A DNA stretch of 45,319 nt from a virus (Duplodnaviria; Caudoviricetes): the IMG/VR virus record IMGVR_UViG_3300011438_000006, positions 1-45,319 of that record. One strand, written 5' to 3'. Under the pieces are notes generated by a model. That model was given only the letters and a program-made list of their open reading frames with translations, did not search any database and was not told where the DNA came from. Shown here in pieces: positions 1,512 to 36,050 of this stretch. The number at the start of each line of letters is the position of its first letter. Position 1 is the stretch's first letter. The translations under genes and the position numbers were made by a program.

Positions 1512-1575
1512 TAAGCTAGGTAGGTCTCGAACCTACATCTTGCACGCATTACTCCGCATTTTATGCTACTAGCTC
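1512..1575 (-). ncRNA. tRNA-like RNA lacking an anticodon arm (64 nt)
   Basis: Acceptor GAGCTAG/CTAGCTT plus discriminator A; U8A9; D stem GCAT/ATGC; T arm GTAGG-TTCGAGA-CCTAC; only 9 nt between D and T arms. Confidence 0.65.
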
Positions 1576-1650
1576 ACCACTCGTGGGTACGTTTCCCTTC
1601 AATAATTCACTTGATCGGTGAATTATTATAGCCTAAAGTTAAGGCTATCG

Positions 1651-1723
1651 TGCGTTCGGCGGGATTTGAACCCACAACAAAGAGATTAGAAGTCTCTTGC
1701 TCTATCCATTGAGCTACGAACGC
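1651..1723 (-). tRNA. tRNA-Arg(UCU)
   Basis: GCGTTCG-TA-GCTC-AATGGATA-GAGC-A-AGAGA-CTTCTAA-TCTCT-TTGTT-GTGGG-TTCAAAT-CCCGC-CGAACGC-A; CCA not encoded. Confidence 0.95.
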
Positions 1724-1990: not shown

Positions 1991-2623
1991 TAGAGTAGAC
2001 GATAGTTACAAGTGGTCAACCTCCATATCCTGTAACTATCGTCTACTCTAGAAAAACTCTGGCGCAGAGTACTTTCGGAAAGCAGATTGAAAGGTAGAAA
2101 TTTATCTACTTTCAGCCATCCCCGATTTTGACGTACTACTCATCTGCCTTACGACTTCGGGTTAGAGTGCCGGAGAGAAAAACTAGGTTGGATACTGGGA
2201 ATACTTTGAGCTATCATTTGGACCCCTACATACCTTAACAATATGCAGCAACCTAGAGAAAATACCTGGGCTTATTTTTGATACTAACCCAGGATTAGTG
2301 GATTGACTAGCACTTCTGCTAGGAGGTTATATATTGGCCTTGCCCCTACCAATTTGTTCTGACCCTCACTGCTCTAACAAACTGCTCGCTAGTTGCATGA
2401 ATGAACTAGAAAGTCTGATGAAATGCTTCGAGTCGGTAAGACCTATCTCAGAACTCCCAGTCATAAGTTGCCTAGTACCCTATTTACTAGGATTGGAAAC
2501 GGCAGCAGTATCTATGTGATCCCGCTCAACTTACGAACTTAGAAAAGGAGCCTTTTAAAGTCTTGCTCAGGACTTCATTACAAGTTCAATCAAAGAGTGG
2601 GGTTCATTCTCTGAGAACTTGTA
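1991..2623 (-). ncRNA. candidate large structured RNA or array of structured small RNAs
   Basis: No credible ORF; more than 10 stem-loops including a perfect 20-bp stem; domains separated by TTTT(T)C linkers on the - strand; strand inferred from flanking genes. Confidence 0.55.
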
Positions 2624-2626
2624 AAA

Positions 2627-3532: not shown

Positions 3533-3564
3533 CCACTAGCATACATTTCAAGTATGATTGCAAG
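3533..3564 (-). promoter_or_regulatory. conserved 32-bp promoter motif, copy A
   Basis: CTTGCAATCATACTTGAAATGTATGCTAGTGG; 24/32 ungapped identity to 12263-12294. Confidence 0.6.
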
Positions 3565-11467: not shown

Positions 11468-11584
11468 TCTGGTTTCTACCTTTCAAGTAGTTATTTCGGT
11501 CCCGGCTATTTCCTATTTCCGGGCATAGCTCTCGCCCCTCCATCGTCTCACAGATCGGCCTACAGGTCAAGACATTTCTTGGTA

Positions 11585-35626: not shown

Positions 35627-36050
35627 ATCCACGCTGTCCGCAGCAGTCACAGACTAACCAGTCAAAAGGAGTTCCCCCCTTAAGACTGAGTAGTAAATTA
35701 GAGAAGTCGTTGTTCATGTGGTTATTATCCTTGTGAATGACGACTTCTCTTTCTGTTAATGGACGACCTAAATGTTGTTCCATTAACCACTTGTGCTCAT
35801 ACACAAGTTTCATTTCACCATCTATTTCCTTGTAAACTCTAACATATCCCTTGTCGATATGTCTAGCATTTTCTAATTTCTCTTGACGTTTCTCAGCTCT
35901 TAATGTTATGCATTCTTGACACCAACCATCCACAAGAACTTTCTTCTTTTTACATCCCCTACAGGTCTTAGCTTCAAGAGACTTAAGCAAATCCTCTGTC
36001 TCTTTAAGAAGCTCATTTATGTCCAAACCACTCTCTCTACCCTTTGCCAC
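35595..36050 (-). CDS. HNH endonuclease (HNH_3 type) with zinc ribbons
   Basis: YEHKWLMEQHLGRPL..EVVIHKDNNHMNN..SNL; CxxC pairs. Confidence 0.8.
   Translation of the reverse strand: MAKGRESGLDINELLKETEDLLKSLEAKTCRGCKKKKVLVDGWCQECITLRAEKRQEKLENARHIDKGYVRVYKEIDGEMKLVYEHKWLMEQHLGRPLTEREVVIHKDNNHMNNDFSNLLLSLKGGTPFDWLVCDCCGQRGSISIVPLPEQ

Follow-up and report, generated by a model that had tools for sequence, protein, structure and literature searches.

Structured RNA behind a conserved orphan gene

The window analysed here, a whole stretch of viral DNA of 45,319 nucleotides, is a complete record with direct terminal repeats and encodes a terminase, portal, capsid, DNA polymerase, primase-helicase and WhiB-like factor. 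Because a WhiB-like factor is encoded, an actinobacterial (Actinomycetota) host is likely. No host was assigned, because no relative of the orphan gene described below was found in 185,579 prokaryote genomes. The locus under study starts 3 nt past the stop codon of this gene and comprises eight RNA modules, designated A to H (Table 1). It had been described as a gap free of ORFs: short ORFs of 30–61 codons do overlap it, but none has a counterpart where modules are missing. It was also said to precede a pair of tRNA genes; a tRNA-Arg gene does lie downstream, but a 67-codon ORF intervenes and the second 'tRNA' is degenerate.

Table 1. Modules, genes and motifs of the locus and its surroundings (positions in the window)
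Feature	Position	Strand	Remarks
Orphan gene, 281 aa	2627..3472	−	carries the cassette as its 3′ region
Promoter-like motif	3538..3563	−	TTG-hexamer, 14 nt, TATG-hexamer; ~70 nt before start codon
Module A	2578..2624	−	long hairpin right after stop; z −6.5
Module B	2548..2575	−	28-nt H-type pseudoknot, coremin-like; single copy in genome
Module C	2455..2543	−	three-way junction closed by 10-bp helix; cargo; z −2.1
Module D	2296..2454	−	159-nt cargo block; z −0.1; competing helices; possible pseudoknot 2351-2320
Module E	2265..2293	−	single hairpin; cargo; z −4.4
Module F	2183..2256	−	three-way junction closed by 8 bp; cargo; z −2.1
Module G	2056..2177	−	closing helix P1 around pseudoknot; carries hairpin P4
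G helix P2	2161-2157 with 2125-2121	−	
G helix S2	2137-2133 with 2072-2068	−	
G helix P4	2113-2104 with 2087-2078	−	
G loop	2088..2103	−	invariant CCUUUC at 2094-2089
Module H	1991..2050	−	20–22-bp terminal hairpin, then U-rich run; z −8.1
67-codon ORF	1940-1737	−	between locus and tRNA-Arg
tRNA-Arg(UCU)	1650..1723	−	270 nt downstream of locus, past the 67-codon ORF
Degenerate tRNA-like element	1512..1577	−	missed by ARAGORN; 37 bits in Rfam
Ribosome-binding site of 123-aa gene (11467-11096)	11473..11486	−	14-nt perfect complement of G loop; candidate target

The tRNA-like element has a shrunken D-loop and an odd anticodon arm; its family was found within the equivalent cassette of two related loci (L223, L227) and is missing in six closer ones. 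Two perfect hairpins (1578-1649, minus strand) separate it from tRNA-Arg, and both are missing behind the tRNA in L046 and L001. A gene resembling Acb2/Tad1-hairpin proteins lies at 58-387 on the minus strand (Pfam E 3e-5, under the curated cut-off), and similar sequence comes after the tRNA in L001–L003. Elsewhere, an HNH endonuclease ORF (36050-35595) contains two long hairpins at 35701-35820, whose z of −9 on the minus strand was the lowest among 65 sampled 120-nt windows.

The orphan gene has 20 close homologues and 213 relatives at E ≤ 0.001 among 50% representatives. Its product is predicted to have a helical N-terminal half, a basic G[KP]RG[KP]R motif, which is conserved, a small alpha/beta C-domain and an acidic tail. 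No Pfam or PHROG family was assigned to the protein, Foldseek gave no match at E ≤ 0.001 and the ESM Atlas no usable match. The best VIA-align hit (Z 7.6, rmsd 4.8, 64 aligned) corresponded to a generic coiled coil, and the C-domain reached Z 3.0; this lack of a fold match does not indicate a new fold. The promoter-like motif upstream stands in the same place in the window, L001, L046, L003, L049 and L050, suggesting that it may be the promoter of both gene and cassette; a sigma-70 scan did not find it. Structured RNA follows the gene in 20 of the 21 loci folded (z ≤ −2.6, extents set by eye).

Investigation of Rfam showed no family other than tRNA at gathering score in the whole window, and no credible family at E ≤ 10 between 1400 and 2700. 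Compared with 20 dinucleotide shuffles, the fold of the whole locus was more stable (z −5.1 on the minus strand, −3.0 on the plus strand). The gap had been taken to be nearly all stems, but A and H, the two end hairpins, account for most of this stability, and the inner part (2056-2543) reached a z of only −1.25, with D alone at −0.1 and G alone at −0.8 (folded without pseudoknots). The closing stems were where the original prediction had put them, with 20 perfect pairs at 1991-2050, eight at 2183-2256, six at 2265-2293, seven at 2464-2533 and ten in the stem at 2578, which ends at 2624. The pseudoknot claimed at about 2547-2575 is real, at 2548-2575. In 2056-2175, the inner stems that had been proposed differ from those that are conserved: L046 and L001 have no ATCTGC, L046 has no TGAAAG, and a different pairing of this region is backed by covariation. 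Near-identical AGAAAA(A) linkers are present at 2050-2056, 2176-2183, 2256-2262 and 2541-2546, but none lies between D and E.

The strand had been considered uncertain on account of mixed G-U signals. The nested fold of G is indeed better on the plus strand, but the minus strand is the best reading: all genes around the locus lie on it, modules C, E, F and H fold better on it, and G-U variants in relatives pair on it only. The tetramer CTAG occurs often at helix bases of the locus (9 in 633 nt, compared to 154 in 44.7 kb); as a 4-mer it is not enriched across the family.

Gain, loss and exchange of modules among relatives

The loci of relatives were compared in 24 rows, window included; the window's own record, eight duplicates and two contigs stopping at the gene were left out. 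A backbone, consisting of pseudoknot B (2575-2548), pseudoknotted domain G (2177-2056) and a long end hairpin, was recognized. Of the 24 non-redundant loci, eight contain both B and G, each of them belonging to the closest clade, and the end hairpin, mostly of unrelated sequence and followed by a U-rich run, was found in all seven backbone loci checked. The slot between B and G holds modules C–F in the window and L046, a module M in L002 and L049, and a module K in L003 and L021, and is empty in L001 and L050. L002 and L021 agree to 94% over a length of 1.1 kb but differ in the contents of this slot. Modules C–F (370 nt) are absent or replaced in six of eight close loci; their loss is clean in L001 and L050, where the backbone measures about 250 nt, and L001 lacks exactly the stretch between two U-runs. 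Module junctions fall in U-rich linkers. Contigs of DNA run X2 showed B joined directly to the gene and different neighbours at the edges of B and F, including another neighbour at the exact 5′ edge of F and a hairpin with a UAGGGGCAA loop, related to D, that abuts F.

No module is universal (B is present in 11 and G in eight of the 24 loci, so that 13 are without B). Distant loci carry K-like junctions (seven loci), tRNA-like elements and hairpins with pyrimidine-rich loops. Strong helices within modules numbered 12 compared to two in shuffles, while those between modules numbered 11 compared to 18 in shuffles; about a third of the predicted pairing (68/207) joins different modules. Because no module is universal and helices are enriched within but not between modules, the locus is best read as a modular cassette and not as one ornate fold. 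Of the two forms originally envisaged, it is the cassette of self-closing RNAs joined by U-rich linkers that is supported by module gain, loss and swap at linkers. A specific partnership with the 281-aa protein, also envisaged, is unsupported, with no module common to all loci and no informative match from fold searches. Taken together, these results describe a real, modular and uncatalogued 3′ tail of a conserved orphan gene, best placed on the minus strand.

The cargo modules C–F are known from two full sequences, those of the window and L046, and from short contigs. Module C differs between the two at 19 positions, and both versions fold to the same three-helix frame. D shows two differences only, the sole change in E sits in the loop, and F has one G-U to A-U change plus one loop-base change. 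In module A, which is a different hairpin in L002, L003 and L047 and is absent in L049 and L050, the L046 changes preserve the stem; predicted helices are therefore kept in A, C, E and F. Over D, E, F and H, five of 322 sites differ from L046, compared to 38/111 (34%) and 7/22 (32%) of four-fold sites in the flanking genes, and this low divergence could reflect selection or recent exchange. The 17-nt core of F was found nowhere else as RNA in viral contigs, with one chance match. Module H is likely a terminator or 3′ guard.

Several elements of other loci were also seen. Module K (L003 4845-4925, and likewise in L021, L055, L056, L059, L227 and L229) is a three-way junction with a conserved UAAAC linker, a GUGYCC end and closing helices of 6–9 bp with different letters; it had no Rfam match in the loci scanned. 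A tRNA-like element directly after B in L052 (2240-2365) has a long anticodon-arm insertion ending in a pyrimidine-rich loop, and received no Rfam call at gathering score. Behind the gene in L057, L059 and L229, one purine-rich loop is presented on different hairpin stems.

A blastn search of the locus against 50,697 phage records returned only module B as credible, in Streptomyces phage ClubPenguin just behind a stop codon. In the literature as far as it was accessible, no description of B, G or the cassette was found, although supplementary files or subscription papers could hold B; five motifs were absent from the six supplements of PMC10690425 that were available.

Folds of modules B and G

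Covariation had been proposed as a check of the folds, and both B and G covary strongly. B is widespread, in phages as well as in mobile elements. By estimate, a degenerate pattern of B matches ~2,700 viral stretches and 460 stretches of genomes, the latter with titles from Bacillota, deltaproteobacteria, Patescibacteria, Bacteroidota, Planctomycetota, methanogens and others (mostly metagenome bins). In an alignment of 45 copies, hand-picked from matches of equal length, 96.8% of cells were paired with 71 two-sided changes, compared to 27–42% in slid controls. At least three of the four unconstrained stem pairs were kept in 128 of 139 viral copies, and 104 of 120 genome copies had the 3-nt spacing and at least two of the three stem pairs. 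One pair of the pseudoknot exchanges A-U, G-C and G-U (70, 29 and 6 of 105 genome copies). Imperfect variants resembling B occur in a Vibrio phage and in a crAss-like phage.

The surroundings of B are not random: 58 of 128 copies lie within 10 nt of a stop codon (4.3 in shuffles) and 28 of 128 are followed by a U-run (3.4 in shuffles). Of 136 viral copies, 23 have a tRNA no more than 25 nt away, a hammerhead follows in three of 241 as well as in L008 and L011, and ribosome-binding sites are also found downstream. Since B stands before hammerheads and tRNAs, a 3′ role is favoured, at least there. The hammerhead-type ribozymes start within about 20 nt after B (L008 ~1990-1930 and L011 1994-1936, both minus strand; L265, L091, L218). 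Where tRNAs come right after B (L094, L106, L114 and others), 19 of 23 are tRNA-Asp, probably from one phage group. Stop-codon read-through into B was rejected, as another stop occurs within 20 codons in the window. Likewise, a type III antitoxin was looked for: B has a single copy in the window, with no tandem pseudoknot repeats and no Rfam match to ToxI, CptI or TenpI. A likeness of B to pistol, twister, preQ1 or ToxI was considered and dropped.

The nearest known fold is coremin, or xrRNA-C, of plant and fungal RNA viruses, for which the accessible text of the sources gives a loop consensus of YGAD or YGNNAD and a second hairpin directly after the spacer (PMC10520033, PMC10321173). As described there, B shares with it the 4-bp first hairpin followed by an 8–10-nt A-rich spacer, and with the xrRNA-WCC variant a Watson-Crick loop-spacer pseudoknot with GAG/CUC (PMC10520033, PMC10321173). 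In the same accessible descriptions, the position just behind stop codons is a further likeness, as are the same stem-plus-spacer letters in many copies (a GTC..GAC stem in 60 of 105 genome copies). However, the 8-nt loop CUGRGCAW starts with CU and breaks the YG rule (the loop is fixed by the search pattern and is the same in the window), and no second hairpin is required, one being found in 8/128 copies compared to 10.5 in shuffles. B also differs in a second stem of 4–5 bp, in residing in DNA phages of bacteria and in a nuclease resistance that is putative. Measured against what those sources describe, B is not a coremin member, as both its loop and the missing second hairpin depart from the rules; by analogy, it plausibly works like a nuclease roadblock.

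Module G is restricted to one clade, and pattern scans outside the family gave chance matches only, in unrelated contexts. In all eight loci, P1 keeps 5–6 of 6 pairs with different letters, P2 5/5 pairs with one A-U to G-C swap, and S2 (with its extension) 4–5 of 5 pairs with swaps; P4 is also kept in 8/8, as 6–12 bp with six sequences around one loop. The eight sequences form two subtypes, so that independent events number fewer than eight.

The loop of G carries the invariant CCUUUC, whose complement GAAAGG ranked first of 2,685 hexamers for lying before starts in this genome (9/29), and the four best non-self duplexes of the loop were all with GAAAGG-type ribosome-binding sites. Because CCUUUC complements the top hexamer and the best duplexes are ribosome-binding sites, the loop is, by its sequence, of the anti-Shine-Dalgarno type, and G may tune translation by loop pairing. 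The loop may target messages or mimic the 3′ tail of 16S rRNA; a supposed likeness to a Cas12a repeat was considered and dropped. The 14-nt perfect match before the 123-aa gene was found after the fact, and such a match was reached by 11 of 2,000 shuffles keeping CCTTTC. Loops and targets were compared in the relatives G001 and G002, three further records being short fragments. In G001, the matching site keeps 10 nt before a different gene. In the complete G002, no site has fewer than two mismatches in 12 nt to its loop variant; four have two (six in the control), and one of the four is a plausible ribosome-binding site.

Bacterial sRNAs derived from 3′-UTRs lie behind a stop codon, end in a terminator and carry a seed complementary to ribosome-binding sites. 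G is like them in its conserved single-stranded seed complementary to such sites, but differs in that a hairpin within a pseudoknotted domain presents the seed, the RNA is phage-encoded, exchangeable cargo adjoins it and its processing and targets are putative.

Expression, function and known RNA systems

Evidence of RNA comes from one exact 199-nt contig (2325-2523, D–C) with a depth of 3.8 in one of four RNA runs, which is unstranded and may be DNA; it bridges C and D uncut. The other three runs gave short exact pieces of the gene only. Parts of the locus that these contigs leave uncovered are uninformative.

We favour, at a probability of about 0.45, a modular cassette with a fixed backbone and a variable slot, which would be transcribed with the gene and trimmed to small RNAs that are stable; among these, G would pair with ribosome-binding sites. 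What is observed of this reading is that the locus is modular, that B and G have covarying folds, and that the loop of G is invariant and complementary to the ribosome-binding hexamer of this phage. The gene's promoter would drive the transcript, with read-through to hairpin H. B would serve as a nuclease roadblock at the border of message and cassette, as a 3′ guard of the mRNA or a 5′ guard of the cassette. Host endonucleases would cut the single-stranded U-rich linkers and leave end-paired domains, G would damp translation of phage genes with GAAAGGUAG-type sites, and the cargo would consist of accessory RNAs, acting as decoys or as additional seeds, which recombination at UUUUCU linkers would exchange. 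As for cleavage, the mycobacterial RNase E motif is given as RN^CNU in the accessible part of its source (PMC10641625), of which the linkers have only the +1 C, the consensus being mycobacterial; of 113 U-runs in cassettes, 58 are followed by a C, compared to 600 of 1,595 genome-wide.

The strongest competitor, which we consider possible at a clearly lower probability, is a single stable 3′-derived RNA from B to H, left uncut where 5′-to-3′ decay stalls at B and acting as a multi-domain sponge. It would be comparable to BNYVV ncRNA3, with cargo varying like the variable linker of GOLLD, whose 5′ part, in the accessible descriptions, varies and whose linker at times contains tRNAs. The coremin-like stem, spacer and GAG/CUC pairing of B, within the limits of the sources above, suit such an RNA, as do the positions of B at the head of the cassette and of a long hairpin at its close, and the contig bridging C and D. 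However, where a hammerhead or tRNA directly follows, B ends the upstream piece and cannot shield anything downstream, B shows no excess of second hairpins, and more than half of the loci (13/24) are without it.

A decoy role of the modules, directed at nucleases of host defence or at toxins, is rather unlikely; in it, the G loop would mimic the 16S tail, tRNA-like elements would mimic tRNA and small pseudoknots would mimic type III antitoxins. Conserved loops on variable stems and rapid cargo turnover are consistent with such a role, and so are the presence of TCTTTC in 10 of 17 quasi-independent cassettes (2.6 expected), the tRNA-like elements in the same slot of L052, L053, L223 and L227, and the nearby Acb2/Tad1-like gene (E 3e-5). 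Against it, no Rfam match was found in the locus, and the likenesses to the 16S tail and to ToxI/CptI are presumed.

HDV-type ribozymes need a conserved C before the last helix strand, and P3. G has neither (cores compared by eye), is confined to one clade, and the locus gave no match to hammerhead, HDV/theta, twister, pistol or hatchet at E ≤ 10, which makes an undescribed self-cleaving ribozyme, be it G or a cargo module, improbable as the element separating the message from downstream RNA; in its favour, one might point to the hammerheads occupying the same position after B elsewhere and to the nested, helix-closed pseudoknot of G. Least probable, and already largely refuted by clean module loss, is a single ornate GOLLD/ROOL-type RNA or a scaffold for the upstream protein, which the size of ~630 nt, the phage and tRNA context and the basic conserved motif of the protein had invited, but which has against it the absent Rfam match, a backbone of only ~250 nt in L001 and L050, cross-module helices that are not in excess and the lack of a module common to all gene carriers.

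A bolder idea, which we regard as speculative and doubtful, is a plug-in 'RNA toolbox', in which a nuclease-blocking knot and an end hairpin would frame a slot for recombined, unrelated RNA effectors, and G, the fixed member, would be a phage-encoded anti-Shine-Dalgarno RNA, either silencing phage genes or serving as bait for anti-ribosome defence nucleases.

Like GOLLD and ROOL (PMC5737381, 10.1101/2024.12.08.627333), the cassette is phage-borne, several hundred nucleotides long, near tRNA, pseudoknotted and variable in part; unlike them as described, it matches no model, strings its modules like beads without supported long-range helices, and belongs to the 3′ region of a single conserved gene. 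T4 RNAC and RNAD are likewise small phage RNAs of a tRNA region (PMC3014915; likened by description, not sequence), but here a swappable set of many domains is tied to an orphan gene. In the UG27 variable ncRNA arrays, single RNA units of phage arrays are also gained or lost between close loci (10.64898/2026.09.22.753630); in that account, however, a single fold is common to all units, which serve a reverse transcriptase, whereas the cassette units have different folds. No internal copies were found among the cassette units, which are not repeats, and there was no reverse transcriptase among the subset of ORFs searched (19 proteins against PHROGs, nine against Pfam). Coremin, GOLLD/ROOL, T4 RNAC/RNAD, UG27 and 3′-derived sRNAs are thus the closest systems, and, by the descriptions accessible, the cassette is a member of none.

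The locus offers a number of RNA folds that are compact and uncatalogued; as deletions and swaps of them occur in nature, each can be tested alone, unlike GOLLD/ROOL. B, only 28 nt long, recurs in viral stretches by the thousand and in the genomes of many phyla, and if it blocks nucleases, xrRNA biology would extend to bacteria and phages. With G, a specific function that can be put to the test is proposed for a structured RNA of a phage, that of pairing against ribosome-binding sites. If true, the 'RNA toolbox' would be the RNA counterpart of anti-defence protein islands. As the cassette suggests, phage RNAs that lie near tRNAs and look ornate can consist of exchangeable parts set in an array.
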